Positions 66 to 63,999 of a DNA stretch of 64,000 bases are shown piece by piece (positions within the stretch are counted from its first letter, which is position 1; each line of letters starts with the position of its first letter). The stretch covers positions 6,409 through 70,408 of the forward strand of contig JADGEM010000011.1 in the NCBI GenBank assembly GCA_016744375.1. Direction: 5' to 3'. A program made the position numbers and the translations under genes. The notes under the pieces were generated by a model. The model saw only the letters and a program-made list of their open reading frames with translations, ran no database searches and was not told where the DNA came from. The stretch is from Gammaproteobacteria bacterium (GTDB lineage Bacteria; Pseudomonadota; Gammaproteobacteria; GRL18).

Positions 66-1499
66 TCACAGTGACATAATTGTTCTTTTGTTATCCGAGA
101 TAAAGACATTAATCCGGTCTTTAGCCGACTCACATGTCTTCCGGCATGGTGTTGCCAGGATCAGGACACTTGAGTGCTGAGATGACATCAGCGGCTTAAA
201 CAATTCTAGAAGCTTTGCGGCCATCCGATTATCTACCTTATACCCAGCAATGGAATATTGACTGGCCACAAGAATGCTCTTCCCGCTATCCGAATGTAAT
301 ATCTGCTTGAATGCAAAACCATGCTCACTGCTTTGCTGGGTCACTTGCCATGCATTGGAATAAATATGGTTTTTATAATACACCAGTTCTTTTCCAGGGT
401 GCTGTTGTGCATAATGCCTGAATGACACCTGCAATCGCTCCCCATTAACCTTAAACACCTCATCAAGTCGTCCATCAGCACCAATGAAAACAGGACGAAG
501 CCACATTTTGGGCTGTTGCTCAGTATCACCACTGAAAACCGGCAATGCCTCAGCCAGAGTATTATCATTAACAGCAGATGAAATTGACATGGGTGGGATA
601 AACAATGCCAGACAGGCCACTAAATAAGGTGCAAAATGGTAAGTTGAAGGCTTTATCTCATGAGTTTTTTCAACCGGCATTTCATCTTTAAACCAGAGGC
701 TATAACGACCTGCCAGATAAAAAAATGGAATTAAAGTAAAAGCAAATAGTATCCAGCCGAAAAAATCATGATTATTGATCAAATCCGATTGCATGTTCGT
801 TACATGTCCGACAATAATAATGATATAAACACGCAGCCAATTGGCCAATAATGCGAAAAACACCGCTGTCAATATCAGAGCAGTTCTTGTCCGCCATTGT
901 GTATAATTCTGATAGGCATACAAGGCCGCAAGCGTCAAAGCAACAATCAGATAGCGTAATCCTGAGCAACCGCCTGCCACTTCAAATACCCCTTCCGGAA
1001 TGGTGACCATGACACCCTCAATGTAAACTGGAATACCAATAAATCCAAGGAAGACGCCATTAATCCAAACCGTCACATCCTGTAATAATTCAACCAGGTA
1101 GTCCCAAAAAGGAATGGCGCAGTATAAGAATAAAGCTGGAAAGAAAAACTTCTGCCCCTCCTTTACGCCCAGAACAATTAAAAAAAACAGACACAGCATA
1201 ATGGGTATTAAAATCTGATGAATGACTTCAATATCTGCAAAATAGGATAATACCCACAAAAAAGAGCACAACATAAGAACAGGGACAAATAAATAATTCA
1301 CCTTAATTTTTTCATAGTCTATTCGTTGAATTTGCTGAAACAAGAGATAGATAACAATGATCAGAACCAGATAACCATGAGAATAACTTTCGTCAAAGCG
1401 ATTCCATCGTTCAAAGAAAGATGACCAGGTTGGCAAAAAGAAATAAGCAAACCCAGAAAAAAATAATAACAAAGATGTCCAATGCAAATATTTATTCAT
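66..1499 (-). CDS. xrtA: Exosortase A with C-terminal EpsI-like domain
   Basis: Multi-TM N-terminus with YSHGYL, GGCSGLRYL (catalytic Cys), NWLRV (Arg) and NHDFFGW (His), followed by a soluble EpsI-like domain; PEP-CTERM context. Confidence 0.95.
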   Translation of the reverse strand: MNKYLHWTSLLLFFSGFAYFFLPTWSSFFERWNRFDESYSHGYLVLIIVIYLLFQQIQRIDYEKIKVNYLFVPVLMLCSFLWVLSYFADIEVIHQILIPIMLCLFFLIVLGVKEGQKFFFPALFLYCAIPFWDYLVELLQDVTVWINGVFLGFIGIPVYIEGVMVTIPEGVFEVAGGCSGLRYLIVALTLAALYAYQNYTQWRTRTALILTAVFFALLANWLRVYIIIIVGHVTNMQSDLINNHDFFGWILFAFTLIPFFYLAGRYSLWFKDEMPVEKTHEIKPSTYHFAPYLVACLALFIPPMSISSAVNDNTLAEALPVFSGDTEQQPKMWLRPVFIGADGRLDEVFKVNGERLQVSFRHYAQQHPGKELVYYKNHIYSNAWQVTQQSSEHGFAFKQILHSDSGKSILVASQYSIAGYKVDNRMAAKLLELFKPLMSSQHSSVLILATPCRKTCESAKDRINVFISDNKRTIMSL

Positions 1500-49485: not shown

Positions 49486-51786
49486 TTATAAGGCCTGACC
49501 TGTTTTATGGTAAAAGATCACAATCAATGCAGGAAGTAGAATCAAGTCAAAGATCAATGCAATAAAGAGACCTATGGCTGTCAATAGGCCAAAATGTGAA
49601 ATGGGCACAAAATCAGCAGTCGCCACCAGAAGGAACTGGGCGCAGAGAATCATTGTGGTCACAACGATAGCACGGCCAGTTTTATAATAACTTTGCACCA
49701 GAGCATAAAGAACACTGCAGCCGCTATCCAGCCTTTTTTTATAACCATAAAGAAGATGGACAGTGTCATCAACAGCAATACCAATTGCAACGCTGGCAAT
49801 CATTGCAGTGGCCATATCTAACCAGATACCAAAAATTCCCATAAAGATAAAAATGGCGGCAATGGGTGATAAATTTGGCAGCATACTGAGTACAGCAATT
49901 GATAGGCTTTTCCATAGATAGAGCATAATTAAAAAGATCATTAAAACTGCAACCAGCAGACTGTCTATCTGACCCGAAATTAATAATCGGTCTTGATCAG
50001 CAAACAAACGTCCTTCACCACCCACAGCCCAGGTCATTCCAGAAATATTATCCTGCAGATAGTTTTCAATTCGTTCAATAACAGTTCGTATATTTCTTGA
50101 GTTATGCTCATGCAAACTGATCACAATTCGAGTTTTGTTAAATTCTCTATCAACCAGCTCATAAACTTCATCCCCATCATAAATAAAAAAATACTGACTG
50201 ATCAATGGATCATTATCCGGTAATTTTAAAAATGCCGGATCGTTATAATTCATCGCACGGTGCATATCCTCAAGAAAATCAACCAGGGAGATAGCTCGAT
50301 CAATCTCAGGCTGCTGCACAAGCCAATTGCTTAATTGCTCAATTTGTTCCAGGTTTTTCAGTTTTTTTAAACTATCCCGCGCATCACCCGTTAAAACCAC
50401 TTCCAGCGGCATAACCCCTGTGAGTTTATCTTCGACTAATTGTGTGTTTTCTGTAACAAAGTGTCCTTCTGGAAAAAATTTGAGTAAATTGGTTTCAGCA
50501 TTTACCTTTAAAATAAACGGGCCGCCAATAACAAGAAGCAATAGCACAAATGCTAATGCCCAGCCTGCCCTTCGGATTGACAGGGCAACAATTGACTTTA
50601 ATAATTTATCAAGCCAGTTGACTTTATGCTTTTGACTTGACCAATCATTTTTATCAAACTGAATGAATACTGGGGGAATAATAAATAGCACAAGAAAACA
50701 TAAGAGAGTCACACCAGATGCTGCAATCAAACCAAAATGTCCAATCGGCAGAATAGGGCTCGCTGATAATGAAGCCAGCCCCAGCACTGTGGTTAATGCC
50801 GTGAAAAAAACCGGTTTTTTAACCTGCTTTAAAGCAAAGCTAACTCGTTTTTTACCCTGATAATGGTAGGAAGAAGCCAGCTTTAGATAACTATAAAAGT
50901 GAATTAAAAATGCGGTGGTCAAAGAAGCCAGCATGGGTGCTAACATTGATGCAATCATGGTATAAGGCACAGAAAAAACGACAAAAAGCAGCATCGCTGA
51001 ACTCACCACTGCACCCGTTGTGATCCCAGCAACAAGCACAGCGAGGCCCTGTCTGAAAATAAGCCAGATAAATAACAAGCCGACAATGACCGTCCCGGGA
51101 ACAAACTTAATGGTATCTCTGACCGTTGAACGAAATTGCTCAATCTCCACCACAACGGGCCCGGCCCGTGCAATCACATGATCGATTATATTATTTTTTG
51201 TCAGTATCTCGTCTACTCGCACCATTAAATCAATTCGCTCAATGGTTGAGTGAATTTTTTCAGGGCGTATCATGATAGCCATATAATGAGGCGTATGACT
51301 GACAGTCATCCCGCTGGCAATTCGATCAGATTGTGCAAACTGATATCTCGCCAGTGCCTTGCTTATTTCATCTCGTTTTTCTTTGCCTAATAATTCTGAG
51401 ACCTCAAAACCATCTTCTGTCCCTTCAATATGTTCCATTTCTGTGACACTGACAACTCTTTCAACGTTAGGCTCACGCTTTAACTCCTGAGTGACGCGAT
51501 GCAAGCGTTCAAGAAACTGATCACTGTATAAATCATCGCCCTGAAATAAGATTATGGCATTTTGATCACCGGGAAAAATTTCTTCTAAGTCCTTTTTTAA
51601 AACAACACCCGCCTGATCAGGTGGCAAATAGACCTCTGGCGCATTATCAAAAACGATTTGGGTTAGAAACAGGGAAGGAAGGACATTAAGTAAAATCAGT
51701 AACAAAAAGGGCGGGAAAGTAAGGTATCTCAACATACGCTTTAGCAATGAAGATTTCAGCTCTGAGCTCAAAACTGACCTCTCCAC
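49486..51786 (-). CDS. MMPL/RND-family inner-membrane transporter
   Basis: Two MMPL repeats (about 12 TM plus two periplasmic domains) and GIAVDDTVH in repeat 2. The true start may be the TTG at 51771 overlapping the upstream TGA. Confidence 0.9.
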   Translation of the reverse strand: MERSVLSSELKSSLLKRMLRYLTFPPFLLLILLNVLPSLFLTQIVFDNAPEVYLPPDQAGVVLKKDLEEIFPGDQNAIILFQGDDLYSDQFLERLHRVTQELKREPNVERVVSVTEMEHIEGTEDGFEVSELLGKEKRDEISKALARYQFAQSDRIASGMTVSHTPHYMAIMIRPEKIHSTIERIDLMVRVDEILTKNNIIDHVIARAGPVVVEIEQFRSTVRDTIKFVPGTVIVGLLFIWLIFRQGLAVLVAGITTGAVVSSAMLLFVVFSVPYTMIASMLAPMLASLTTAFLIHFYSYLKLASSYHYQGKKRVSFALKQVKKPVFFTALTTVLGLASLSASPILPIGHFGLIAASGVTLLCFLVLFIIPPVFIQFDKNDWSSQKHKVNWLDKLLKSIVALSIRRAGWALAFVLLLLVIGGPFILKVNAETNLLKFFPEGHFVTENTQLVEDKLTGVMPLEVVLTGDARDSLKKLKNLEQIEQLSNWLVQQPEIDRAISLVDFLEDMHRAMNYNDPAFLKLPDNDPLISQYFFIYDGDEVYELVDREFNKTRIVISLHEHNSRNIRTVIERIENYLQDNISGMTWAVGGEGRLFADQDRLLISGQIDSLLVAVLMIFLIMLYLWKSLSIAVLSMLPNLSPIAAIFIFMGIFGIWLDMATAMIASVAIGIAVDDTVHLLYGYKKRLDSGCSVLYALVQSYYKTGRAIVVTTMILCAQFLLVATADFVPISHFGLLTAIGLFIALIFDLILLPALIVIFYHKTGQAL

Positions 51787-53732
51787 CCGAAAGTCACCAT
51801 CGTATTATTTTCATAAAAACCACCCAGAGTATTATCATTACCATCCAGATAATGAATGGCGGAATACATTTCAAAGGGTTCCCAGCCAAGATAGGCTACT
51901 TCGGGTGAAATGTAGATGTCTTTTTCATCAAGGCCAAGATTAAAACGACCACTCAGCTTCCAGCGGTTATTGGAAAACAGTGTTTCAACTTCACCGCTTA
52001 AGTTAACAATATTATCTCGATCGATAATTTTTTCTTTTTCGTCAATATGAGAACCCGACAATTGAAGATTTACCCGAGTATCACCATCACCCGGATAAAA
52101 TTCTGCGCCACCGGCCCATTTTAACCCATCATAGGTCTCATATTGAAGGCGACTGGTGGTAGCAGGCAAATCAGAAAACCAGGCGGCTTCAAATCGAAGT
52201 AAAAAATACCCAGCCTGAAATTCTGTATCGCCGCCAATCACCCAGCTTCTTGGATGTTTCTCTATCAGCGCATATTTCTCCTGATTCATCAGTGCCGGAT
52301 TAGCAACAATCGTAGGATTGATCTGATAATAAGGGGTAGAAAGTTTAACTCTCTGAACGGTTAAATCAAAGTCCATGGAGTTAAGAGTGGTACTATAACG
52401 AATACCAAAACCACCATCCGTTTCATTGATATCATCATCAATTTTACCATTTTGCAACAACGTCTTTAATAAGGGGGTGGAACCAAAACCCAGGATCGCA
52501 CCTTCTTCAATGTTAACCGGATACCAGACATTTTCTTTATCGGACAACTCCGCTTCTCTGAAGTAGGGTAAATAGACAACATCTAACTTACCATTGTCAA
52601 AGAAAAATTCTCCTCGAACAATTGGGGCCGAACGGTAAGCTTCACCCCATTCAAATAACACCCCCCTGCTCATATCCAGCGAAGAAACATTATCTGTAGG
52701 TGAAAACGTATCCATTTTACCCCAGCGAACCGTATCAGAACCGACCGTTAAACGCATGGATTGATCACGATAGCGCAAAAAGTTGTTGCCATAATCAAGA
52801 TTTAGTTCATCATTATCAGCACCTTTATCACCATGTTGATAATTGCCATCAAGTCGGGCAGCAATCTGGACTTCCCAATTGCTTGATAACTGCCATTTTG
52901 CATGAGCTGATGCATTGATGTATTCAACATGATCCACTGAAGAAGATGATCGGGTAAATAATTCGGTTTCCAGCTGTATTTTATCTACAGCCCACTCAAA
53001 ATTATCGCCAGTGCCTTCATCGTCATCTTCAATTGACATTTCATAGGTGATGTCAGAAGAATCAGACATCACAACAATCATAACCTCATCATCAAGCTCA
53101 ATATTTTCTTCTTGAGTGGCTAATACAGACTCTTTTTCAACTGTACTTTCAATAGCAGGCTTCGACATAAGCGTTGCCGGGGCTAGTATGTCAGATTTTT
53201 TTACAATTGCTTCTGGAGCGGGTGCTTTATCAGGGAGGCTTTTATTTACAACTGCCGGCTTCATGAGTGAAGATGGCTTAGGTCGTTCAAATTTGGGAGC
53301 AGGAGGTTCACGCAGCATAACGATATAGCGGACTAGTTTAATCTTATCAGTATGCACTTTAACATTTTTCATACCCAGGCGACGCAGCCGATTAAATGTT
53401 TTACCAATACTTTTTTTACTTAATGATTGACGAACAATAATTGAATAGCCTCGTTCATAGCGTCCCTTAACCACTTCAAGCCCGGAAAAACCTTGTTTAT
53501 CAATTAATTGTGCCTGTTTAAAGGCATTGCCCCATTGTGTATGCCCTTTTAATAATACGGTATAACGTTGTTTTTGCTGCTTTTGAACGGTTAAGTTACT
53601 CCGTTTACCCCGTGCTTCCTGCTCCTGTATAAAACGATCGGCTCGTTCTTTGGTCGAAAATTCATAGGGTTGCACTGCATATAAAGGCTGTAAAAAAAAC
53701 AGACATGACAAACTTATCAGATACTTAAACAT
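51768..53732 (-). CDS. Outer-membrane beta-barrel (DUF1302-like) with N-terminal SPOR-like domain and Pro-rich/acidic linker
   Basis: Signal peptide; two basic beta-alpha-beta repeats (YTVLLKG..AQLIDKQGF; YSIIVR..NRLRRLGM); PAP linker; TVRWGK, DVVYLPYF and C-terminal GWRGQF. Confidence 0.65.
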   Translation of the reverse strand: MFKYLISLSCLFFLQPLYAVQPYEFSTKERADRFIQEQEARGKRSNLTVQKQQKQRYTVLLKGHTQWGNAFKQAQLIDKQGFSGLEVVKGRYERGYSIIVRQSLSKKSIGKTFNRLRRLGMKNVKVHTDKIKLVRYIVMLREPPAPKFERPKPSSLMKPAVVNKSLPDKAPAPEAIVKKSDILAPATLMSKPAIESTVEKESVLATQEENIELDDEVMIVVMSDSSDITYEMSIEDDDEGTGDNFEWAVDKIQLETELFTRSSSSVDHVEYINASAHAKWQLSSNWEVQIAARLDGNYQHGDKGADNDELNLDYGNNFLRYRDQSMRLTVGSDTVRWGKMDTFSPTDNVSSLDMSRGVLFEWGEAYRSAPIVRGEFFFDNGKLDVVYLPYFREAELSDKENVWYPVNIEEGAILGFGSTPLLKTLLQNGKIDDDINETDGGFGIRYSTTLNSMDFDLTVQRVKLSTPYYQINPTIVANPALMNQEKYALIEKHPRSWVIGGDTEFQAGYFLLRFEAAWFSDLPATTSRLQYETYDGLKWAGGAEFYPGDGDTRVNLQLSGSHIDEKEKIIDRDNIVNLSGEVETLFSNNRWKLSGRFNLGLDEKDIYISPEVAYLGWEPFEMYSAIHYLDGNDNTLGGFYENNTMVTFGWRGQF

Positions 53733-53735
53733 CTG

Positions 53736-54557
53736 TTACTTCCTTGATAACTGTTTAACAATATCTTTTTCACGCAGAGGATCTTCCAGATATTTTTGTG
53801 TAAATAATTCTGACGGTATGCTTTGATCATACAGAATTTCATTGGTTTGAATATGGGTTTCATGATGTGATTTTAAGTCCTGTGTGACGGCTTTTAAAAT
53901 CGTCCAGAATCCCTGTTTTTTCCCAACCTGCTTAACCAGGCTACGTTTCACTGGTTTACTCTCACCATTCTGATAAAAATCAATACGTAAAGGAATCAAT
54001 GACTTAACATGTATCCAGCTGACCCGTTTATCATAAACCGAATTGCCCTTAGAACTTGGTATGCTTTCAAGAACAATCGTCTCCATGCCGTTTAGCTTTT
54101 CTTTTTTTACAATACGATGCGTATCTTCACTCACCCTGCGATCACGTAAATCTTCATAAAAGATATCAGAGCCAACAAAACGCCCCCCCTTTCTTTTTGA
54201 TGAAATCCGACGAGATTTTTTAACTGCGGGAAGAAATATCCATTGATCAGAGTCCTTATCCGAATAATAGTCAATGGTCAGCAAACCGGTATTCTTAATA
54301 TCCTGAGGTTTTTTAAAGCGTATTAATGAAAGTGTATTGCCATTGGGATCGTCCAGGCGAAAGCTATTCATCTGGCGTAATCTTGGTTTGTGGCCTTTTT
54401 CAACAAGCGCCATAATGCCAACAGAATAGGCGTTATCACCATCAGGGCGGTTTGATACCGCAGTCGCCAGCTCAAATCCAGAATCATAAGAATGGCAAAC
54501 AATAGGAAATAAAAAGGTGCTGACTATAAAAGTTATTGGATACTTGAACTTATACAT
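53736..54557 (-). CDS. LolA-like outer-membrane lipoprotein-sorting protein
   Basis: DIKNTGLL, DQWIFLPAVKKSRRIS and FVGSDIFYEDL; signal peptide. Confidence 0.88.
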   Translation of the reverse strand: MYKFKYPITFIVSTFLFPIVCHSYDSGFELATAVSNRPDGDNAYSVGIMALVEKGHKPRLRQMNSFRLDDPNGNTLSLIRFKKPQDIKNTGLLTIDYYSDKDSDQWIFLPAVKKSRRISSKRKGGRFVGSDIFYEDLRDRRVSEDTHRIVKKEKLNGMETIVLESIPSSKGNSVYDKRVSWIHVKSLIPLRIDFYQNGESKPVKRSLVKQVGKKQGFWTILKAVTQDLKSHHETHIQTNEILYDQSIPSELFTQKYLEDPLREKDIVKQLSRK

Positions 54558-55910: not shown

Positions 55911-56990
55911 ATGAATTCAATATTACATTTTCTTGCTTCTTCTATTCATCAATCCCCTTCTGCAGATAACTATCAACCCTGGCTCATAAAATGGGATGAG
56001 AAGACTCTCACAGTCACTTATGACTCAGGACGAGTTAAAGATCAGACTTTTCCTCCTGAGAATCCAGCTACTCTACTCACTATTGGTGCAACACTGGAAA
56101 ATATTAAACAGGCAGCCACAGCCATCGGGCTCGAGCTAAACTTGCAAATACCACAAGAATTAGACTTGTCAGAGCTCATTTACTACCATGCTGACATTAA
56201 TACCCCACATAAAGAAATAAGTCTGTCAAAAAAATCAATCCCTTTATTTAACCGCCATACTAATCGCCTGGCCTATAAAAAAAGCCCCTTATCTCCAGAT
56301 ATTATAAAAATGTTAAGCGATCAGGAGCAAGGCCCTGCACGGGTTGTTATTTTTGAGCATAAAAATGAGATTCAGGAGATTGCACAAGTTGTCAAAAAAG
56401 CATCCGAAATTCGATTTCAGACGGAAGAAGTTCATGAATGGTTAGGGAAAAGCCTTCGCTTTAGTGATGAAGGTGGCTCTAATGGTAAAACTGGAGATGG
56501 ACTAGACACTCGAACTTTAGATCTGCCTCCAGGTGGTCAGTTGTTTTTACACTTGATAAAAAGCTGGAGTCGGATGAAGTTATTAAATAAGATTGGTGCT
56601 TATAAACTTCTTTCAATTATTGATTCAGCACCAATACAACAGGCACCTTGTCTGGTGGCCATTATTGGTCCAACAAAATTCCAGGACATACTTGCTGCGG
56701 GCCAATTAATGACTCGTGTCTGGATAGAGCTGAATAATCATGGCATTGCCGCACACCCCTATTTTGTTATATCGGATCAACTCCATCGTCGTGAAGCCAA
56801 TCTTATACCTGATGAATTAACAGAACTGGCAGATTCTATACACCAATCTTCTCAAAAAATATTCCATCTGAAGGAAGGTGAAACCATTCAGATGCTTTTA
56901 AGAGTCGGATACCCCAAGAAAATACCTATTCCATCTAAGCGACTGAAGTTAAATAAAGTCTGCACAGGTTTTGAAATAAAAGAAAACTAA
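55911..56990 (+). CDS. Nitroreductase-like (Acg-type, two-lobed FMN-binding) oxidoreductase
   Basis: SPSADNYQPW, RHTNRLAY, AGQLMTRVW..GIAAHP and MLLRVGY. Confidence 0.8.
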   Translation: MNSILHFLASSIHQSPSADNYQPWLIKWDEKTLTVTYDSGRVKDQTFPPENPATLLTIGATLENIKQAATAIGLELNLQIPQELDLSELIYYHADINTPHKEISLSKKSIPLFNRHTNRLAYKKSPLSPDIIKMLSDQEQGPARVVIFEHKNEIQEIAQVVKKASEIRFQTEEVHEWLGKSLRFSDEGGSNGKTGDGLDTRTLDLPPGGQLFLHLIKSWSRMKLLNKIGAYKLLSIIDSAPIQQAPCLVAIIGPTKFQDILAAGQLMTRVWIELNNHGIAAHPYFVISDQLHRREANLIPDELTELADSIHQSSQKIFHLKEGETIQMLLRVGYPKKIPIPSKRLKLNKVCTGFEIKEN

Positions 56991-57007: not shown

Positions 57008-57889
57008 TCATCCAGATTTTGCCTGTTTAGCCTTCATTAATTGCTTTTTAGCTATGTATAAACCCAGGCGTTGAATCGGATTACTATTACCCCATGGTCG
57101 CCAGGTTGTCTTAAGTTTATTTTCAAAAACATCAAAATGGAGTCCCCAGGGAGCAGCTACTACTTTGCCTCGCTGCAGCAAAACCTTAAGGGCATAGGTT
57201 GCCGCCATACCTGCACAAAGATCGCAAGCCATTGGGGTTGACGGTCCTTTATGAGCATCAAGATCGATTCGGCTGTCATCAACTAAATAAGGCATTTGCA
57301 GCATAGAAGGTGATAAGCCCAGTAAGAAATGCAGTAATTGATCAAATTCTGACTTACCATCCATTTGAAAATACTCTTCGAATGACATCTTTCCGGGAAG
57401 AAAACATAATAAGGCTGACCCCATCCCCAATGGCGCAGCAGTAACCGCTGGAATTCCCTTCTCATGACAGGCAGCAAAAACTGCTTTGCGTGCATCTAAT
57501 GCAAAAAAATCCAGGCCATCAATGTAAAGATCAACGCCATTTAAAAAATCATCCAGATTTTCATTGTTCACACCCTCAGGATATTTTTTAAGATCAAGTT
57601 CAGGATTTATATCCTGTGCTAATTCCGCCATAACATCCACTTTTGTTCGATTAATGTGGCTTATTGAGGCACCCGCCTGACGATTAAAATTAGCCAATTC
57701 AAAAATATCTAAGTCCGATATATTAAATTTCCCAACCCCTAGGCGAGTCAGGGTGATCAGATGACTACCACCAACACCACCCAGACCAGCTATGGCAATA
57801 CGCTTATTGCGTAACAAGGCCTGTTCGGACTCAGTTACCCAGCCAATATTGCGTGAAAAAGCAGTCTCATAATCAAATGCTTTATCCAT
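57008..57889 (-). CDS. ThiF/MoeB/E1-family adenylyltransferase lacking the Zn-binding CxxC pairs
   Basis: AFSRNIGW, AGLGGVGG, DLDIFELANFNRQ and IDGLDFF. ATG at 57889 follows an AGGA RBS. Confidence 0.92.
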   Translation of the reverse strand: MDKAFDYETAFSRNIGWVTESEQALLRNKRIAIAGLGGVGGSHLITLTRLGVGKFNISDLDIFELANFNRQAGASISHINRTKVDVMAELAQDINPELDLKKYPEGVNNENLDDFLNGVDLYIDGLDFFALDARKAVFAACHEKGIPAVTAAPLGMGSALLCFLPGKMSFEEYFQMDGKSEFDQLLHFLLGLSPSMLQMPYLVDDSRIDLDAHKGPSTPMACDLCAGMAATYALKVLLQRGKVVAAPWGLHFDVFENKLKTTWRPWGNSNPIQRLGLYIAKKQLMKAKQAKSG

Positions 57890-57906
57890 AGTTATTTCCT
57901 TAAAGT

Positions 57907-58713
57907 TCAATCAATATAATTTAGATAGGGCTCTTTAATTTGAAGATAAATCCATTGATATAATTCGACCAATTCAGGACGCATATTATCCAATGCTGAC
58001 TGTGTCGTACAAAAATAGGGCGCCCGAATACCATGATAATCAATATCCTTTCCTGCTTTTTGAAACAGAATGCCGGAACGCTTTAGAAGTCTTGGCAAAA
58101 ACGGCTCCATCATTGCAAACACATTGGTTCGTCCTGATAACTCTGTCAAAACAGTCGCCGCAAGGAAAGCGGCAATGGCAATCAATAAAAAAGTTCTTTG
58201 TTCTTCTTTGGTAAATTCCAGGTTAATATCACCAAAACGAGTCAATGCTTCACCAGAACGCTTTCTAAAGACACCATCAACCGCTAAACGAGAAATTTCA
58301 CATTGTGTTTCACGGTCAAGATTTAATTGTTTGATAAAATCCAAATCAAGACTTGTCGCACAGAACTTCTCAAATGGCAGGAGGTCAAACGGTGGTTGGG
58401 CCTTTGAATTAGCAGGCACCAGACGTACACAGGCTGCTGGAATTTTTGTAGAGATGTGGGTAATTAAACAGTGTAATGAGAAATCATCATATTCATCCTT
58501 TTCCATTTCATCAGGACAACTTTCAATGGTTTCAAATTTGAATTCTTTACAATAAACATTATAACGTATGTTATAAACTTTTCGTTTATCTTCAGGCGCA
58601 GTAATAAATTCAACGATAAAGTATTTTTTGAACAGTTCAACCATTGTCTGGTCTTTGTTACTTGTTGGCTCTTTATCCATTAGCTCTGTCTCAAGTTTAG
58701 AGTTTAATAGCAA
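57907..58713 (-). CDS. PEP-CTERM/exosortase-associated N-acyltransferase (ExoAT, TIGR03694-type; FeeM/LuxI-like GNAT)
   Basis: VYNIRYNVYCKE, EKDEYD, ACVRLV, EISRLAV..FRKR and AMMEPFL..LKRSGI..YHGIRAPY. The true start is probably the ATG at 58680 or 58644. Confidence 0.9.
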   Translation of the reverse strand: MLLNSKLETELMDKEPTSNKDQTMVELFKKYFIVEFITAPEDKRKVYNIRYNVYCKEFKFETIESCPDEMEKDEYDDFSLHCLITHISTKIPAACVRLVPANSKAQPPFDLLPFEKFCATSLDLDFIKQLNLDRETQCEISRLAVDGVFRKRSGEALTRFGDINLEFTKEEQRTFLLIAIAAFLAATVLTELSGRTNVFAMMEPFLPRLLKRSGILFQKAGKDIDYHGIRAPYFCTTQSALDNMRPELVELYQWIYLQIKEPYLNYID

Positions 58714-58718
58714 GGAGA

Positions 58719-59192
58719 TTATAAATGTTTCTCAATATCATGGGCTTTCAGTCCCCATGCAAATAAATCATTAACCCGGTGATTGGCACGATGCAGTCTG
58801 CCTATTAATATTTCAAACAAATCTTTGTAAAACAAATAGCCCTGTGTCGGGTGAGCATCAAGATAGATTCCTAGTTTTTCGCCATTGACTTCCACAAGAC
58901 TTCCGTCCGAGATTGCACGTACCGATGCGCTTCGGACCTGAGATTCATAGAGAGCAATTTCACCAAAGATATCACCAGGCTCAAGCTCCCAGATACCAGC
59001 CTGAATGTGTTTATTTCCTTCTAACTCAATATTGCCTGCAACCCTAAGTTTGCCTTCTTCAATAAAAAATAAAGCCCCTCCCTCTTCACCTTCTTCAACA
59101 ATTATTTCATTGTCACAAAACACCCGCCGCTGCCAAGCTGAATTCTCTGGAAAATGTGGATCACCCAAAATATCTTTCAGAATATTATTCAT
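58719..59192 (-). CDS. Stand-alone cyclic nucleotide-binding domain protein (no HTH)
   Basis: IVEEGEEG..LFFIEEG and phosphate-binding cassette FGEIAL..RSASVRA. Confidence 0.9.
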   Translation of the reverse strand: MNNILKDILGDPHFPENSAWQRRVFCDNEIIVEEGEEGGALFFIEEGKLRVAGNIELEGNKHIQAGIWELEPGDIFGEIALYESQVRSASVRAISDGSLVEVNGEKLGIYLDAHPTQGYLFYKDLFEILIGRLHRANHRVNDLFAWGLKAHDIEKHL

Positions 59193-59326: not shown

Positions 59327-60268
59327 ATGGCCTCACCCCACATCGCAGAGCAATTTGAACAAATTCACATTGATATTACACGCAATGCCACCGACGACTT
59401 TAATTTATTTCATGATAGTCATGGATGGTCACGAATTTTTCAAAATCCCTTTCAGGGTCCCATTGTTCTTGGTTTTCAAATTGAATCATTAATCGAGAAC
59501 AAGGTTTATCAGCATAGACAAAGCCATAACGAACTGGAAATTATTAATCAACACAAGCTAAATTTCAGTAATTATCAATTTTCATTCGCTAAAGCGATTA
59601 AAGCTCAAGAAAAAATTAACATTGATGTTAAGAAAACAATTATTTCAGAAAGTGAAAATTATACTTTAAGCAATCGTATCAGCGTAAAAACAGGTGGTAA
59701 GCTAGCATTGATCGGCTTTAAAAGAGAATCACAAAAACCGCTATTTCTAAATGAAGTCTTTCAGGGTGAACACAGCTCTGAGCATGAGATAAATACTGAT
59801 TTCACTCAACATACTGATCGAAGTTTTATAAATATAAATCAGGTTCGTTATTTTTTAAAAAAAAAATATATGAATGCAAGTAATGCAAAAAATTTTTTAT
59901 GCGGATCATTAGTTGATCAACGATTATTTTTTGATGAATTAGAGCACAAGTATCTGTTCCCTGAAATTTTCCCTTGTTCATATATTTCTTGTGCCTTGCT
60001 GGAAAAATCACTCTTTGAGCATCTTGATTTTGAAAAAAATCCAATGGTGTACAGCTCACACAAAATCAGTATCGACCGCTCATTATTAACTCTATTAAGA
60101 AGTAATCATGTTCTTAATATTATAATCACTCAACAAAAAAGCAATGACCCTAACACTCCAATTCAGTCTTATGAGTGCTATGGGCTAGTTGAAAAGAATG
60201 CTGTTCTGTTCCGGGCTATTGTCGAATTGATACCATTAGCAGCTATATTGAAAACAGTAAAGAAATAA
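59327..60268 (+). CDS. Putative double-hotdog (MaoC/R-hydratase-like) protein
   Basis: RNATDDFNLFHD..GPIVLGFQ resembles the hydratase-2 motif (GDxNPxH..G.IxHG), followed by beta-strand runs and a second similar half. Confidence 0.5.
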   Translation: MASPHIAEQFEQIHIDITRNATDDFNLFHDSHGWSRIFQNPFQGPIVLGFQIESLIENKVYQHRQSHNELEIINQHKLNFSNYQFSFAKAIKAQEKINIDVKKTIISESENYTLSNRISVKTGGKLALIGFKRESQKPLFLNEVFQGEHSSEHEINTDFTQHTDRSFININQVRYFLKKKYMNASNAKNFLCGSLVDQRLFFDELEHKYLFPEIFPCSYISCALLEKSLFEHLDFEKNPMVYSSHKISIDRSLLTLLRSNHVLNIIITQQKSNDPNTPIQSYECYGLVEKNAVLFRAIVELIPLAAILKTVKK

Positions 60269-60294: not shown

Positions 60295-61539
60295 CTATTG
60301 ATGTACACTGCCATTCACTATCGGTTTTTTTAAGAACCGAATGGATTGACTGCCATACTCAATATTTCCTTCTGTTTTCTCAAATTCCAGATTCATAACC
60401 ACATCATCCACTGGCACATGCGCTGAACGAGCAATCTGTTTCGGCCCTATTTTTGCAATGCGCACATTCGAACGTTTACGATCAGGTGTTGCTGAGTGCC
60501 ATAATTTTTTTAATTCAAATTGAATTCGAACAGCCTGCGGAGCAAAAATCTGCATCATTGCATGATCATCCATTTCCCGGAGGCGTTTTGCAAAATTACT
60601 CAGCAGCTTTCCCATATAATCAGGGTTTTCTTTTATCATTGCCAGGAGATATTTATGTGAAATGACAACCACTTCGGTATTACTGAGCGCGGTTGCTGTT
60701 GCTGAACGAGGATTATGATCAAAAATAGCCAGCTCACCAAATAATTCACCTTTTGAGAGGTTTGATAAAACCATTTCATTGCCAGAGTCATCTTTCTTGG
60801 AAATAGAGATCCACCCATCTTCAATCACGTAGGCATTTTTTGCCTTGTCTCCCTGATAAAACAGACTTTCTCCTTTTGAAAGCAGAATTCTTTCAAAAGG
60901 TGACTTTATCTTCTTATGAAACCAGATTGAATCTTTTTCTGTGTAAAAATCTCCAAAGGCCCATTTAAAAACTTTTTCAAGCGGAGCAACCATTGGTGTA
61001 AGCCTATCCCCGATGGATTCGCACCATTTTGTCTCCCCAACAACTTCAAAACCCATACGACCATAGAGGGATTGAGTTTCTTCACTTATCGATATCATCA
61101 CATGACTGCCGCCAAAGCTATGCATTGTGGCGATTGCTGTTTTCAACATGGCATGAATGATATTTCTTCTGTTTCGCCACTCTGCCTTAACGGCCAACAT
61201 ACCACTGCTCACAATGGAAGGAGTGACTTCATCTGAGCCATTATTAAGTTGAGATATTTTTTTTCTGCAGCTTGAAAAATCAAAATAAACTTCTGGAGGC
61301 AAACCAATTTCAGAGTCCTTATTGACTCTTATGCAGGCAACGGGTTCATCGTCATTGTAGGCAATAATATTGGTGGCTTTTGGTATGGTATCAAAACGAT
61401 CGACAATTCGTCCTTTGTTCTCACAAGAGCTTGAATCCAGTGAAAAGCGCCCTTTATTTACCACATACACGTCATAGCGCAACTTGAAAACATCGTCCAG
61501 CTCTTTCGCTGTATGAGCAATTTTTAATTTGATAGACAT
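60295..61539 (-). CDS. FeeM-like N-acyltransferase fused to a cNMP-binding domain and a degenerate Crp-type winged HTH
   Basis: Residues 1-190: ELDDVFKLRYDVY, RIVDRFD, LAVKAEWR, LYGRMGF. About 210-325: FYQGD..YVIEDG..FGELAI..PRSATATA. C-terminus: RIQFELKKL..IGPKQIARSAHVPVDDV..EGNIEY. Confidence 0.85.
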   Translation of the reverse strand: MSIKLKIAHTAKELDDVFKLRYDVYVVNKGRFSLDSSSCENKGRIVDRFDTIPKATNIIAYNDDEPVACIRVNKDSEIGLPPEVYFDFSSCRKKISQLNNGSDEVTPSIVSSGMLAVKAEWRNRRNIIHAMLKTAIATMHSFGGSHVMISISEETQSLYGRMGFEVVGETKWCESIGDRLTPMVAPLEKVFKWAFGDFYTEKDSIWFHKKIKSPFERILLSKGESLFYQGDKAKNAYVIEDGWISISKKDDSGNEMVLSNLSKGELFGELAIFDHNPRSATATALSNTEVVVISHKYLLAMIKENPDYMGKLLSNFAKRLREMDDHAMMQIFAPQAVRIQFELKKLWHSATPDRKRSNVRIAKIGPKQIARSAHVPVDDVVMNLEFEKTEGNIEYGSQSIRFLKKPIVNGSVHQ

Positions 61540-61668: not shown

Positions 61669-63999
61669 TCATTGTAACTTATTAAATAGTATTTTGACAT
61701 TTTCTTTGTCAGAATAGGTTTTTTCTATATTTATTAAGGGCTTGAGGACTTGCAAAGCATTTTCTTTATCTCCGGACAAATAGTACGCCTGTGCCAGATG
61801 GTACTGAGTTCCATAAGCATCGGGTGATAGTTTAACTGCTTTTTTCAAAAAGCGAATACCTTCCTCTGCCTTACCCTGCTTAACCAGTATATGACCATAA
61901 GTGTCCAGAATAGTAGCTGACTCCGGAGATATTTCATACGCTTTTTTTGCAAAAACAAGTGCCTGAGGATTTTTTTCCTGAGCATAGGCCCAAGCCAGGT
62001 TATTTAGCACCAAAACATGATCAGGATTAACTTCCAGGACCTTCAAATAGTGCTTAATAGCTGAATTATACTGTTGTTTATTGAGGTAAATGCTTGCTAT
62101 TTTCAGGTGAATGACAGCATTAGTCTTATTATTGCTTAATGCCTGATCCAATAACTCCAGTGCTTCACCTTCTCTTTCAGTCTTACTCAGCAGATCTGAA
62201 AGAATCAAAGCCAGTTGATGATTTGGCTTAACTTTATAGGCCTTTTGAAAGCTGGCTATGGCTTCTTCAAATTTATTTTGTTTACGATAAATTTCCCCTT
62301 TTAGTTGAGCCCCAAAGACAAGCTCCGGAAATTTTATTTCAGCCAGGTTGGCAACATCAATTGCTTTATCAAATTTCTTCTGTTCAATATAGAAATTTGC
62401 TTTCATTAATAATGGCTTTGGACTATCAGGGCGGATACTAATCACCGTATCAAGAAGCGACATGACTTCTTCTTCACGCCACTGATCTTTAGCCAATATT
62501 GCCGCCAGGGTTAATCGATGGGTTGTATCCAGGTTGTTGTTATTTATAATCGTTTTCAGTGTTTTGACTGCTTGCTTATCTTTTTTATTAATATATTGTG
62601 CATTCGCAAGGAATGACAAAGCTAATGAATTTTCAGGGTATTCCTTTAATAACTCCTGTGCTAAAGGTATTATTTTTTCCGGTGTTCCCTGCTTAACATA
62701 CCAGTTGCTTAATACTCTTGCCATTGCTTCCATGGTACTAAAACTATAGTCTGCCTGTTTTAAGGCTTTTCTTAATTGTTTTTCTACTTCAGCAGGATCA
62801 TTCTGTTTTTCAGCAATCGAAGCCAAAGCCATGTAAGCTTTTAAATCTTTAGGGTTTAACTGGTTTATCTGATAGTAATAATTTTTTGCTGTGGACAAAT
62901 CACCTTGAGCGATTGCAAGTTCTGCCAGCCCTCCATAGGGTGGAATGTATTTATTATTTTCTTGAATAGCTCGATCATAATTTGCCTTTGCAGCTATCAT
63001 ATTTCCTTTTTTGTTTTCCACAACTGCAAGCCAATGGTACAAGGGAGCCAGTTCCTCAGGCTTTCTATTCATTAACTTTTTAATTATATCTTCTGCCTTT
63101 TGGTACTCTTTATTTTCTACATAGGTAGAAATAAGCAGGATGTATGTTTTCTTATTAACACCTTCTGAATCAACCATTTTTTCCAGGCGATTCATAGCAT
63201 TCTCAACTTCTCCAATTTTAAACTGTCCCTCAATTAATTTTTTCTGTATAACTTCATCATCTGGGGCCAGGTCATTTGCTCTTTTTAAAACATCAACGGC
63301 TTTATTGTAATCACCGGAAAGCAGATAGGCACGTCCCAATGTTGTTAAGACTGCTGAATTACTGTTTATTTTTGATTGCTCAATACCGCTCAGAATAAGG
63401 ATTGCCTGCTTAGCATTCCCTTGATCCTGTAAATAAACATTAGCCAGTATGTTCTGCACATTAATATTGTCTGGGTTCGAAGAGAGGTACTGGGTTAAAT
63501 ACTTATCTGCCTGATTGTAATTACCTTGCCCAAAGTGAGCAGCTCCCAAGATAGCCATTGACTCTAAATGATAAGGACTGACTTTTAATACATTTTGTGC
63601 AGCAACCTGAGCCTCTTTATAATTTTTTTCCTTTAACTTAATTTGAGCCAGCATATAATTTGCCTGAGGATGATTTCTTATCCGATCAAGCACAAACTGA
63701 ACATCAGTTTCAGCACCATTGAGATCATTTGATTGAATTTGGATAACGGCTCTTTTAAGATATAGGATCAGGTTATTTCCCTGCAATTTAATTAATTGAT
63801 TGTATTTTTCAAGAGCCATAGAAAAATCTTTATTTTTAACGTCGATACTTGCACTTATTTGTAGTGCTTCAGTATTCTCAGACTCAAGTTTGAACGACTT
63901 TTCAAGCCACTGACTTGCTACCTTATAATCATTTTCCTGGACTGCAATATTTGCCAGCCCATTATAGACCTGTATGTTGGCTCCAGAATCGAGCAATTC
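61669..63999 (-). CDS. prsT: PEP-CTERM system TPR-repeat protein PrsT (5' end outside window)
   Basis: More than 15 TPR-like repeats ending LNNLAWAY..ALVFAKKAYE..LDTYGHIL..QYHLAQAY; the reading frame is open to the window edge. Confidence 0.9.
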   Translation of the reverse strand, partial: ELLDSGANIQVYNGLANIAVQENDYKVASQWLEKSFKLESENTEALQISASIDVKNKDFSMALEKYNQLIKLQGNNLILYLKRAVIQIQSNDLNGAETDVQFVLDRIRNHPQANYMLAQIKLKEKNYKEAQVAAQNVLKVSPYHLESMAILGAAHFGQGNYNQADKYLTQYLSSNPDNINVQNILANVYLQDQGNAKQAILILSGIEQSKINSNSAVLTTLGRAYLLSGDYNKAVDVLKRANDLAPDDEVIQKKLIEGQFKIGEVENAMNRLEKMVDSEGVNKKTYILLISTYVENKEYQKAEDIIKKLMNRKPEELAPLYHWLAVVENKKGNMIAAKANYDRAIQENNKYIPPYGGLAELAIAQGDLSTAKNYYYQINQLNPKDLKAYMALASIAEKQNDPAEVEKQLRKALKQADYSFSTMEAMARVLSNWYVKQGTPEKIIPLAQELLKEYPENSLALSFLANAQYINKKDKQAVKTLKTIINNNNLDTTHRLTLAAILAKDQWREEEVMSLLDTVISIRPDSPKPLLMKANFYIEQKKFDKAIDVANLAEIKFPELVFGAQLKGEIYRKQNKFEEAIASFQKAYKVKPNHQLALILSDLLSKTEREGEALELLDQALSNNKTNAVIHLKIASIYLNKQQYNSAIKHYLKVLEVNPDHVLVLNNLAWAYAQEKNPQALVFAKKAYEISPESATILDTYGHILVKQGKAEEGIRFLKKAVKLSPDAYGTQYHLAQAYYLSGDKENALQVLKPLINIEKTYSDKENVKILFNKLQ

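Follow-up and report, generated by a model that had tools for sequence, protein, structure and literature searches.

Here, we describe a gene whose product joins a FeeM-type N-acyltransferase to a whole Crp protein, found in a stretch of gammaproteobacterial DNA of 64,000 nucleotides, the full length of which is called the window throughout. At the level of sequence and fold, the C-terminal half of this product amounts to a whole Crp protein, and its cNMP-binding cassette is intact. The explanation that we put forward, tentatively and by analogy with known systems, is that the window protein may be a cAMP- or cGMP-gated, dimeric N-acyl amino acid synthase in which the Crp scaffold would act as an allosteric switch; among the explanations considered, a cNMP-gated enzyme, here encoded in a biofilm-polysaccharide (PEP-CTERM) gene cluster, is the most likely because the recognition helix lacks any basic residue. 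New here are the existence of a large, always-fused family, the derived nature of the helix erosion in the clade to which the window protein belongs, and the regular prsT/XrtA/PEP-CTERM neighborhood of the gene. We know of no other case in which a whole Crp scaffold, HTH included, is carried by a biosynthetic enzyme, and the fusion therefore offers a natural case for testing how an allosteric module made for DNA binding gets re-used. If the proposed reading is true, cNMP-gated GNAT enzymes would be known in just two kinds, of which mycobacterial Pat was the first, and a built-in cNMP sensor on a synthase would offer a direct experimental handle on the relation of cAMP to lipid, polysaccharide and PEP-CTERM protein sorting. 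Furthermore, the family is present in cultured marine bacteria (Pseudomaricurvus, Sedimenticola, Terasakiella and Thalassospira) and is thus open to testing.

Architecture of the fusion protein

The features of the gene, of its product and of the surrounding locus are collected in Table 1. The N-terminus of the protein agrees with the family consensus, and the annotated start is therefore right. An AlphaFold2 model of the full protein reached a pLDDT of 83.8 and a pTM of 0.79.

Table 1. The fusion gene, the parts of its product and its neighbors, in window coordinates
Feature	Position	Strand	Evidence and remarks
XrtA	66-1499
ThiF-like adenylyltransferase (PRK08223)	57008..57910	-	NF006077 E 2.6e-131; 4-base overlap with ExoAT
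ExoAT, PEP-CTERM/exosortase-associated acyltransferase	57907..58713	-	TIGR03694 E 3e-59, 200 bits vs cut-off 112
Free-standing 157-aa cNMP-binding protein	58719..59192	-	PF00027 E 8e-16; first gene of cNMP / ExoAT / ThiF-like unit
Convergent 313-aa gene	59327..60268	+	also adjoins the fusion in 5 related loci (tblastn: L003, L022, L024, L028, L033)
Fusion gene, FeeM-type acyltransferase plus complete Crp module	60295..61539	-	single ORF, ATG start, 414 aa plus stop; Pfam
FeeM-like GNAT-fold N-acyl amino acid synthase domain (predicted), residues 1-200	60940..61539	-	PF21926, domain model, Foldseek
Linker, residues 201-215	60895..60939	-	low model confidence, pLDDT about 50
cNMP-binding beta-roll, residues 216-305	60625..60894	-	PF00027 E 2.4e-24
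Phosphate-binding cassette GELFGELAIFDHNPRSATATAL, residues 264-285	60685..60750	-	alignment to CRP and conservation
C-helix and hinge KRLREMDDHAMMQIFAP, residues 306-334	60538..60624	-	model, hhalign, conserved residues
Winged helix-turn-helix domain, Crp topology, residues 335-405	60325..60537	-	secondary structure, Foldseek
Recognition helix F PVDDVVMNLEFEKT, residues 376-389	60373..60414	-	hhalign register, family table, charge comparison
prsT, XrtA/PEP-CTERM TPR protein	61669..63996	-	TIGR02917 E 1.6e-143, above cut-off; directly upstream, 129-bp gap, runs off the window

The original prediction, made from the letters of this DNA, had described a FeeM-like GNAT followed by a cNMP domain with GE and RS ligand residues, a C-helix and a winged-HTH-like tail in which PVDDVVM replaces the usual recognition helix. 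This anatomy held up in every detail, as documented below, and the domain-architecture search proposed with it found the same arrangement in at least 195 protein clusters of 400-445 aa, family members being about 400-420 aa long; the three-part architecture is thereby confirmed as real and not a product of chance. As to function, the prediction had offered either an allosteric cNMP switch or an enzyme-regulator that still binds DNA, and both of these alternatives remain live.

An acyltransferase related to FeeM

The Pfam FeeM model (PF21926) matches residues 16-183 of the window protein well above threshold (E 3.9e-20, 72.7 bits against a cut-off of 27) and is matched by all of the 42 fusion-family relatives compared. 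When the acyltransferase domain was modeled separately (pLDDT 90.8) and searched against the PDB with Foldseek, ranks 1-6 were all chains of FeeM 2G0B (E 1e-11 to 1.5e-9, TM 0.68-0.81); generic GNATs and AHL synthases came next. The residues R21, D47, D50, R71, R125 and Y159 are kept in all fusion members, including deep branches down to 31% identity, and the first four of them match the conserved N-terminal motif of an AHL synthase, the reference in this case being RpaI and not FeeM. By homology, the domain would be expected to acylate an amino acid at its amino group, with acyl-ACP or acyl-CoA as the donor of the fatty acyl chain. In Thalassospira, the gene of the homologue overlaps one for a SAM-dependent methyltransferase, in an operon of biosynthetic type.

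Some fusion members are called Crp/Fnr regulators in public annotations, as would be expected if the GNAT-like domain had lost catalysis and only sensed acyl-ACP or acyl amino acids, the protein then being purely a regulator. We regard this as very improbable, given the near-invariance of polar residues common to the AHL-synthase/FeeM signature, the quality of the domain model with FeeM as its nearest structure, and the erosion of the recognition helix, which also argues against a purely regulatory protein.

A predicted cNMP sensor with an intact cassette

The cNMP_binding match of Pfam spans residues 220-305, and the PDB sequence matches of this roll are the nucleotide-binding domains of Crp, PKA and PKG. 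Within the cassette, G268, E269 and R278 are invariant among the 42 relatives and S279/A280 nearly so; by hhalign the cassette residues align to G71, E72, R82 and S83 of CRP, and the cassette is retained in 10 of 11 distant representatives of the family. The family profile aligned to Escherichia coli CRP with an hhalign probability of 98.7, covering CRP 26-197 and running without gaps from the roll to helix F, so that the C-helix and hinge (residues 306-334) are gapless against CRP R122-D138. A long helix occupies residues 307-332 in the AlphaFold2 model, with F316, R321 and F332 conserved. In the linker that precedes the roll, W206 is invariant among the 42 relatives, and a 'FWLDNF' stretch seen in relatives resembles, when read by eye, the N-terminal 'EWFLSH' helix (helix A) of CRP. 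Of nucleotide cyclases, the host genome encodes one of class I and three of class III.

Many members of the Crp/Fnr family use other ligands, as is the case for FNR, CooA, NtcA and CprK, and the equivalent of CRP T127 in the window protein is Met. Both points would suit a cNMP-like pocket that binds no cyclic nucleotide, or that binds some other ligand, with the Crp half reduced to a constitutive dimerization scaffold; this is quite improbable in our judgment, as the G, E, R and S that contact the ribose-phosphate are kept across the family, which is unusual for members that do not bind cNMP.

A Crp winged helix with an eroded recognition helix

Beyond the C-helix, the AlphaFold2 model continues with a helix (335-349), a strand (360-362), two helices (366-373 and 377-389) and two further strands (393-395 and 400-402), in the order that defines the Crp winged-HTH topology. 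With Foldseek, the C-terminal half aligns to whole chains of CRP, GlxR, Vfr and NtcA over 189-217 columns (target TM 0.7-0.78, E down to 3e-18), cAMP-bound CRP and GlxR being the closest folds. The winged-HTH core residues L343, W347, V380, L384 and F402 are invariant in the fusion family, and the domain is clearly under purifying selection.

Such a complete fold, nearest to cAMP-bound regulators, speaks for a bifunctional protein, in which the Crp half would bind DNA in response to cNMP and control the XrtA/PEP-CTERM neighbors, acyl amino acid synthesis being the task of the N-terminal half; signal synthase and regulator would then be united in a single protein. Several other observations point the same way: most members have A370 and V380 at HTH positions 5 and 15, as in the canonical pattern; R360, K363, R376, R381 and R382 are conserved in most members; the gene adjoins the regulatory gene prsT and, at one related locus (L001), lies near prsK/prsR-type genes; and the regulator annotations mentioned above are in keeping with it. 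The charge of the whole winged-helix domain also favors it, being +6 in the window protein, with values of 0 to +12 for nearly all members, whereas the DNA-binding domain of CRP has +2; an argument against DNA binding built on this charge was rejected because the domain is net positive and only helix F is acidic.

It is helix F itself that makes a bifunctional protein unlikely. The hhalign register, gapless through the HTH, places S179-R180-E181-T182-V183-G184-R185 of CRP exactly on P376-V377-D378-D379-V380-V381-M382, so that the base-contacting R180, E181 and R185 of CRP (the E--SR motif) become V377, D378 and M382. There is no Lys or Arg in residues 376-387 of the window protein and the helix has a net charge of -4, whereas the seven Crp/Fnr proteins taken as genuine have +1 to +2. 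Across the family, acidic residues are conserved at three positions of this helix (E377, E/D379 and E385). The Crp HTH models HTH_Crp_2 (PF13545) and Crp (PF00325) match none of the 42 fusion members at E<=1, whereas, as a positive control, all six canonical Crp/Fnr paralogues of the same genome match both (E 1e-10 to 1e-16). Moreover, helix F is the least conserved segment, with a pairwise identity in the window's clade of 0.48 as against 0.72-0.75 for the enzyme and the roll, and of 0.44 as against 0.53-0.55 when its six exposed positions are compared family-wide; in deep branches of 31-40% identity, the enzyme and cassette residues are invariant while helix F varies freely.

A shared operator was sought among all 5+5 inverted repeats (spacer 0-10, at most one mismatch) in the intergenic DNA up to 5 kb from the gene at 58 loci. 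In this crude search no GC-containing palindrome was enriched, and only AT-rich low-complexity patterns reached 16-22 loci, compared with 14-17 in shuffled sequences. Footprinting of the aligned 260 bp upstream of the gene gave no signal in three clades, the sequences being too diverged.

The state of helix F differs between the window's clade and the rest of the family. Most fusion members carry 'VRE[DS]EV[RL]RVLE' at this position, Pseudomaricurvus hydrocarbonicus JCM 30134 (helix VREDEVRKVLE) being an example of the majority type, and outside the window's clade about half of the members have Arg or Lys at position 382; the window's clade is without the arginines at 376, 381 and 382, and 11 of its 16 members have no Lys or Arg in the helix at all. 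Because most members keep R376, R381 and R382, the erosion is a derived, secondary state of the window's own clade, in line with its place on the tree. Since these arginines are kept together with the canonical HTH pattern, the ancestral module of the family may bind DNA; for the window protein, DNA binding is unlikely.

A large family in which the Crp half is always fused

When 1.84 billion representatives were scanned in full with the Crp half as query, the matches were the fused family and multi-cNMP proteins; a close Crp relative standing on its own was not found. Every shorter near-full-length match that was inspected as a possible free-standing Crp donor starts inside the acyltransferase and is therefore an N-truncated fragment. 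Two further candidates for separate genes were also discarded: an apparent split into FeeM and cNMP genes (L102) is an artefact of scaffolding, the sequence there containing a run of N and a segment that is duplicated, and the internal stops in two genomes (G129 and G271) are simply natural stop codons. One genuine free-standing FeeM-like relative exists, at L101 (240 aa, 60% identical). On the sequences compared, the fusion is a large conserved family whose Crp part is always fused. No account of such a fusion was found in the literature on N-acyl amino acid synthase, FeeM or exosortase joined with cyclic nucleotide or Crp.

The fusion gene in XrtA/PEP-CTERM loci

The fusion gene is associated with XrtA/PEP-CTERM loci and is a regular neighbor of prsT. 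In the window, genes for an export protein, a chain-length determinant, a tyrosine kinase, a TIGR03016 outer-membrane protein, an ATPase and a deacetylase all score above cut-off, and PEP-CTERM substrates are encoded near the fusion gene. An XrtA/PEP-CTERM marker lies within 10 kb of the fusion in 38 of 50 loci, and a PrsT-like gene ends at most 600 bp upstream of it in 17 of 50. XrtA itself was found above cut-off in 8 of 10 carrier genomes as against 68 of 401 (17%) genomes overall. The link is not universal: there is no marker at the Thalassospira locus, and no XrtA was seen in G068 and G076.

On its other side, the fusion gene faces a convergent gene whose product matched nothing in Pfam, in NCBIfam or, by sequence, in the PDB; the 'double hotdog' label given to it earlier could not be confirmed. 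Beyond it lies the cNMP/ExoAT/ThiF-like unit, in which ExoAT is, judging from its sequence, another N-acyl amino acid synthase beside the fusion enzyme, to which it is distantly related. The trio occurs in four related loci as well (L002, L003, L004 and L033), and the ThiF-like gene in 19 of 50. The free-standing cNMP protein shares only 23% identity with the cNMP domain of the fusion, and homologues of it occur in 18 of the 300 further genomes of the class that were sampled. A cNMP/ExoAT pair acting in trans was considered as a general arrangement and rejected, as none of the 18 carrier genomes has ExoAT within 1.5 kb; the pairing is confined to the close relatives of the window.

A possible mechanism

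In a cNMP-gated synthase, the Crp half would, by analogy with CRP, dimerize through the C-helix and bind cAMP, or possibly cGMP. The ligand would then re-orient the hinge and the winged-helix domain, a movement that in CRP brings the DNA-binding helices into position, and the acyltransferase would be opened or closed. The winged helix would have been retained for its structure or for protein contacts, in the window's clade without the basic residues needed for reading DNA, and the product would couple the second-messenger state of the cell to the lipo-amino-acid step found alongside the XrtA/PEP-CTERM loci for exopolysaccharide and protein sorting.

An evolutionary extension of this mechanism is conceivable, although we hold it with greater doubt. 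A complete Crp/Fnr factor may have been exapted as an allosteric regulator, its winged-helix domain, released from DNA and swung by cNMP, turned into a movable lid or docking element on a FeeM-type synthase, with cAMP directly switching the synthesis of a lipo-amino acid needed by the XrtA/PEP-CTERM sorting and exopolysaccharide system and the transition still in progress. If this is true, most clades, with a basic recognition helix, and the window's clade, without one, would display that transition as it proceeds.

Comparison with known systems

The acyltransferase half passes the Pfam threshold of FeeM, which is also the nearest solved fold, with only 12-13% identity; FeeM has no regulatory domain, whereas in the fusion a whole Crp protein is attached. 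With the LuxI-type acyl-homoserine-lactone synthases (RpaI, BjaI, LasI and TofI), the fusion has the fold class in common, and the N-terminal motif R..Y/F-V...D..D...R of RpaI aligns to it, but Pfam Autoind_synth is matched by only 1 of 42 fusion members (E 0.07) and FeeM is structurally closer.

ExoAT belongs to the same kind of locus and the same broad enzyme superfamily, and a true ExoAT is encoded 1.6 kb from the fusion. According to PMC11072679, ExoAT has been linked to N-acyl amino acid synthesis (Craig et al., 2011, as cited there) and is required for polysaccharide band formation in Methylomonas LW13. The fusion is not a member of this family, scoring 19.8 bits against the TIGR03694 cut-off of 111.95; its enzyme part is 25% identical to the ExoAT of the window over 67 residues only, and ExoAT has neither a cNMP nor an HTH part.

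In comparison with the Crp/Fnr family (CRP, GlxR, Vfr and MtbCRP), residues ~200-405 of the fusion reproduce the roll, cassette, C-helix, hinge and winged HTH. Unlike CRP, the window protein carries an enzyme at the N-terminus of the module, lacks the HTH_Crp_2 and Crp signatures, has its base-contacting residues replaced and has an acidic recognition helix.

The closest parallel in principle is Pat (Rv0998/MSMEG_5458), in which, as in the fusion, a cNMP-binding domain is joined to a GNAT-fold acyltransferase. To our knowledge, Pat is the only characterized cNMP-GNAT fusion, and this precedent, together with a weak match of the cNMP part to the Pat model (NF058543) and the PEP-CTERM substrates encoded nearby, would suit a cNMP-gated protein acyltransferase whose possible target is a lysine or the N-terminus of a PEP-CTERM or exopolysaccharide-machinery protein. 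We consider such an activity improbable: the GNAT of Pat is a protein lysine acetyltransferase, whereas fold and HMM of the fusion are FeeM/AHL-synthase-like and not Pat-like; the fusion is not a member of the Pat family (38.7 bits against a cut-off of 460, with only the cNMP part aligning); and the domain order is reversed, the cNMP domain of Pat being N-terminal and without a C-helix/HTH module. Mycobacterial Pat is activated by cAMP through its fused cNMP domain (PMC5861322). By analogy, allosteric activation by cAMP of the same kind is the likely working principle of a cNMP-gated N-acyl amino acid synthase built on a Crp scaffold.

Domain organization and predicted fold

The fusion gene is a single ORF whose coordinates coincide with those of the original prediction (see the table). 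In the AlphaFold2 model of its product, built from 42 relatives (pLDDT 83.8, pTM 0.79), behind the beta-roll come a 26-residue helix (307-332), a second helix (335-349), a strand, two more helices (366-373, 377-389) and a beta-hairpin. The top 50 Foldseek matches in the PDB are solely Crp-family proteins (MtbCRP, GlxR, E. coli CRP with and without DNA, Vfr and NtcA), aligned over 189-217 columns and along the whole Crp chain, DNA-binding domain included, with a target TM of 0.7-0.78; these alignments agree with the HTH-like C-terminus that had been proposed. For residues 1-201, modelled separately (pLDDT 90.8), the six best fold matches are FeeM 2G0B, generic GNATs and AHL synthases ranking lower. 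By its fold matches, the protein is thus an enzyme of FeeM type with a complete Crp behind it. The order first read from the sequence (FeeM-like GNAT, cNMP domain, C-helix, winged-HTH-like tail) is borne out by Pfam domains, the model and Foldseek. The last 110 residues have no Pfam match, and no NCBIfam model covers the whole protein, the best being CRP (70 bits vs a cut-off of 266, over CRP positions 31-155).

Features of the window around the fusion gene and at its far end
Feature	Position	Strand	Remarks
Exosortase XrtA	66-1499	-	TIGR03109, 243 bits
Acg/Rv1355c-type nitroreductase-like gene	55911-56990	+	
Free-standing 157-aa cNMP-binding protein, ExoAT (TIGR03694) and ThiF-like adenylyltransferase	57008-59192	-	Tight unit, 4- and 5-base junctions
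ThiF-like gene	57008-57910	-	
313-aa gene	59327-60268	+	Convergent with the fusion, 26-bp gap
Fusion gene	60295-61539	-	Single ORF, 414 aa

Recognition helix and cyclic-nucleotide cassette

The register was set with hhalign, comparing the family profile with E. coli CRP; the CRP of the window's genome has a nearly identical HTH. The alignment (probability 98.7) has no gaps from the C-helix to the recognition helix, helix F. It pairs CRP G71, E72, R82 and S83 with G268, E269, R278 and S279, and CRP S179-R180-E181-T182-V183-G184-R185 with P376-V377-D378-D379-V380-V381-M382, so that the proposed replacement of the usual recognition helix by PVDDVVM was right to the residue. In the window protein, helix F (376-387) contains no Lys or Arg and has a net charge of -4. 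The charge is +1 to +2 in E. coli CRP and six canonical Crp/Fnr paralogues of the same genome, and spans -5 to +2 elsewhere in the family. None of 42 family members matches the HTH_Crp_2 or Crp Pfam models at E<=1; as a control, all six canonical paralogues match the Crp HTH models (E 1e-10 to 1e-16).

In most members, helix F reads Q-V-R-E-[DS]-E-V-[RL]-R-V-L-E, acidic E377, E/D379 and E385 being conserved alongside R376, R381 and R382. In the window's clade (16 proteins), R376 is replaced by P/H, E377 by V/I/L, R381 by V/I/M and R382 by M/T/S. Because this clade is nested among members of the majority type in a midpoint-rooted tree, and its sister groups show intermediate helix F states, the erosion is a derived state. 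Of the folded domains, the winged helix varies most across the family (pairwise identity 0.46 vs 0.53-0.55), and within the clade helix F varies most of all segments (0.48 vs 0.72-0.75). The winged-helix core (L343, W347, V380, L384, F402) is invariant, and the family retains the canonical HTH pattern of Ala at position 5 and Val at position 15; the domain is net positive overall and clearly still selected, which speaks against a simple "dead domain" view. R21, D47, D50, R71, R125 and Y159 of the GNAT and the GE...RS cassette are retained even in branches of 31-40% identity.

That the Crp half still binds DNA is the main rival reading, which we consider improbable, if by no means negligible; the window protein is a less likely candidate for it than members of the majority type, and a crude palindrome search and upstream alignments revealed no operator, which is weak evidence against it.

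Distribution of the family

A word-indexed search found 195 homologous clusters at E<=0.001. Among the matches listed (120 of 195), nearly all are of 400-445 aa, with identity down to 43%, and the domain-architecture search called for by the original prediction found FeeM and cNMP_binding in every one. Named sources are gammaproteobacterial (Sedimenticola, Pseudomaricurvus, Cellvibrionaceae, Porticoccaceae, Piscirickettsiaceae, Ectothiorhodospiraceae), some Alphaproteobacteria (Terasakiella, Thalassospira) and one Burkholderiales MAG. Present in 10 of 401 genomes sampled from the class and absent from both other sampled genomes of the same genus, the fusion thus belongs to the sparsely distributed accessory genes. 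Two copies are present in some genomes (G068, C108:6322-7533 and C27:38539-39738; loci L035/L036).

Scanning all 1.84 billion representatives with just the Crp half added fused members down to 31% identity and found no close free-standing Crp relative. All shorter full-coverage matches inspected start within the acyltransferase domain and are hence fragments, and apparent split genes are explained by an assembly artefact or natural stop codons. Free-standing FeeM-like relatives exist and are rare. A genuine one (locus L101, 4001-4723; 240 aa, sharing 60% identity with the fused enzyme domain) has no Crp part downstream and adjoins LolA-like (TP_0789-like), 627-aa and Poly_export genes resembling the window's 49486-54557 block.

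Genomic context

The window is an XrtA/PEP-CTERM exopolysaccharide locus, in which genes for the export protein, chain-length determinant, tyrosine kinase, TIGR03016 outer-membrane protein, ATPase and deacetylase all score above cut-off. Since about 59 kb separate the fusion from XrtA, at the opposite end, essentially the whole window is one such region. The prsT gene, on the same strand, ends 129 bp upstream of the fusion. Downstream follow the convergent 313-aa gene, the cNMP/ExoAT/ThiF-like unit, the nitroreductase-like gene and a THxN PEP-CTERM protein. The 313-aa gene matches no sequence in Pfam, NCBIfam or the PDB and recurs directly downstream of the fusion in five related loci (L003, L022, L024, L028, L033); its D-x-N-x-x-H stretch (DFNLFHD) is reminiscent of a MaoC hydratase motif. 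The ThiF-like and Acg/Rv1355c-type genes, separate and divergent here, correspond to the two halves of the fused PRK14851 and PRK07877, and in L001 form one 665-aa gene.

The fused and ExoAT acyltransferases, like the fused and free-standing cNMP domains, are just 23-25% identical, so the locus has two independent pairings, in cis and in trans, of an acyl-amino-acid synthase and a putative cNMP sensor. The cNMP/ExoAT/ThiF-like unit is found again in L002, L003, L004 and L033; homologues of the free-standing cNMP protein occur in 18 of 300 other sampled genomes of the class, none with ExoAT within 1.5 kb, and the in-trans pairing is confined to close relatives.

Flanks were long enough in 50 related loci: a gene for PrsT, a ThiF-like protein, ExoAT or polysaccharide export lies within 10 kb in 38 of them, and a PrsT-like gene ends immediately upstream of the fusion in 17. 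XrtA exceeds the cut-off in 8/10 carrier genomes vs 68/401 overall, related genomes not being independent. The link is not absolute: carrier genomes G068 and G076, 99-100% complete, have no XrtA at E<=1e-30, and of all sampled genomes it is G076 that encodes the protein nearest to that of the window. A 33%-identical homologue in Thalassospira lucentensis (L070, 10001-12096) has no PEP-CTERM neighbours at its locus and shares 4 bases with an overlapping TIGR00027 SAM-dependent methyltransferase gene, whose product might methylate the carboxylate of the homologue's product. Diguanylate cyclase and phosphodiesterase genes flank this homologue.

Proposed mechanism and known systems

Judged by sequence and fold, the window protein combines a FeeM-type enzyme whose polar core residues are conserved with an intact cyclic-nucleotide cassette, a C-helix and hinge like those of CRP, and a winged HTH with an acidic recognition helix. 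The enzyme would take acyl-ACP or acyl-CoA and an amino acid as substrates, the pocket of the Crp half would bind cAMP or cGMP, the C-helices would dimerise, and ligand binding would be relayed to the enzyme as in Pat, the cAMP-activated mycobacterial protein acetyltransferase (PMC5861322). By this analogy, we give somewhat less than an even chance to the protein being an active, dimeric, cNMP-binding and cyclic-nucleotide-gated N-acyl amino acid synthase with a Pat-like relay. The window's genome encodes a class I cyclase and three of class III, and has 16 cNMP-domain matches.

Public records label family members generically or as Crp/Fnr regulators, and no description of a FeeM-type synthase combined with Crp was found in the literature. 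The window protein falls outside both the ExoAT and Pat families by their membership tests, and outside DNA-binding Crp proteins at the signature level. According to Craig et al. (2011), as cited in PMC11072679, FeeM-type synthases are linked to PEP-CTERM systems. Each part is of a known kind: FeeM-type synthases, their PEP-CTERM link, Crp and cNMP-gated GNATs.
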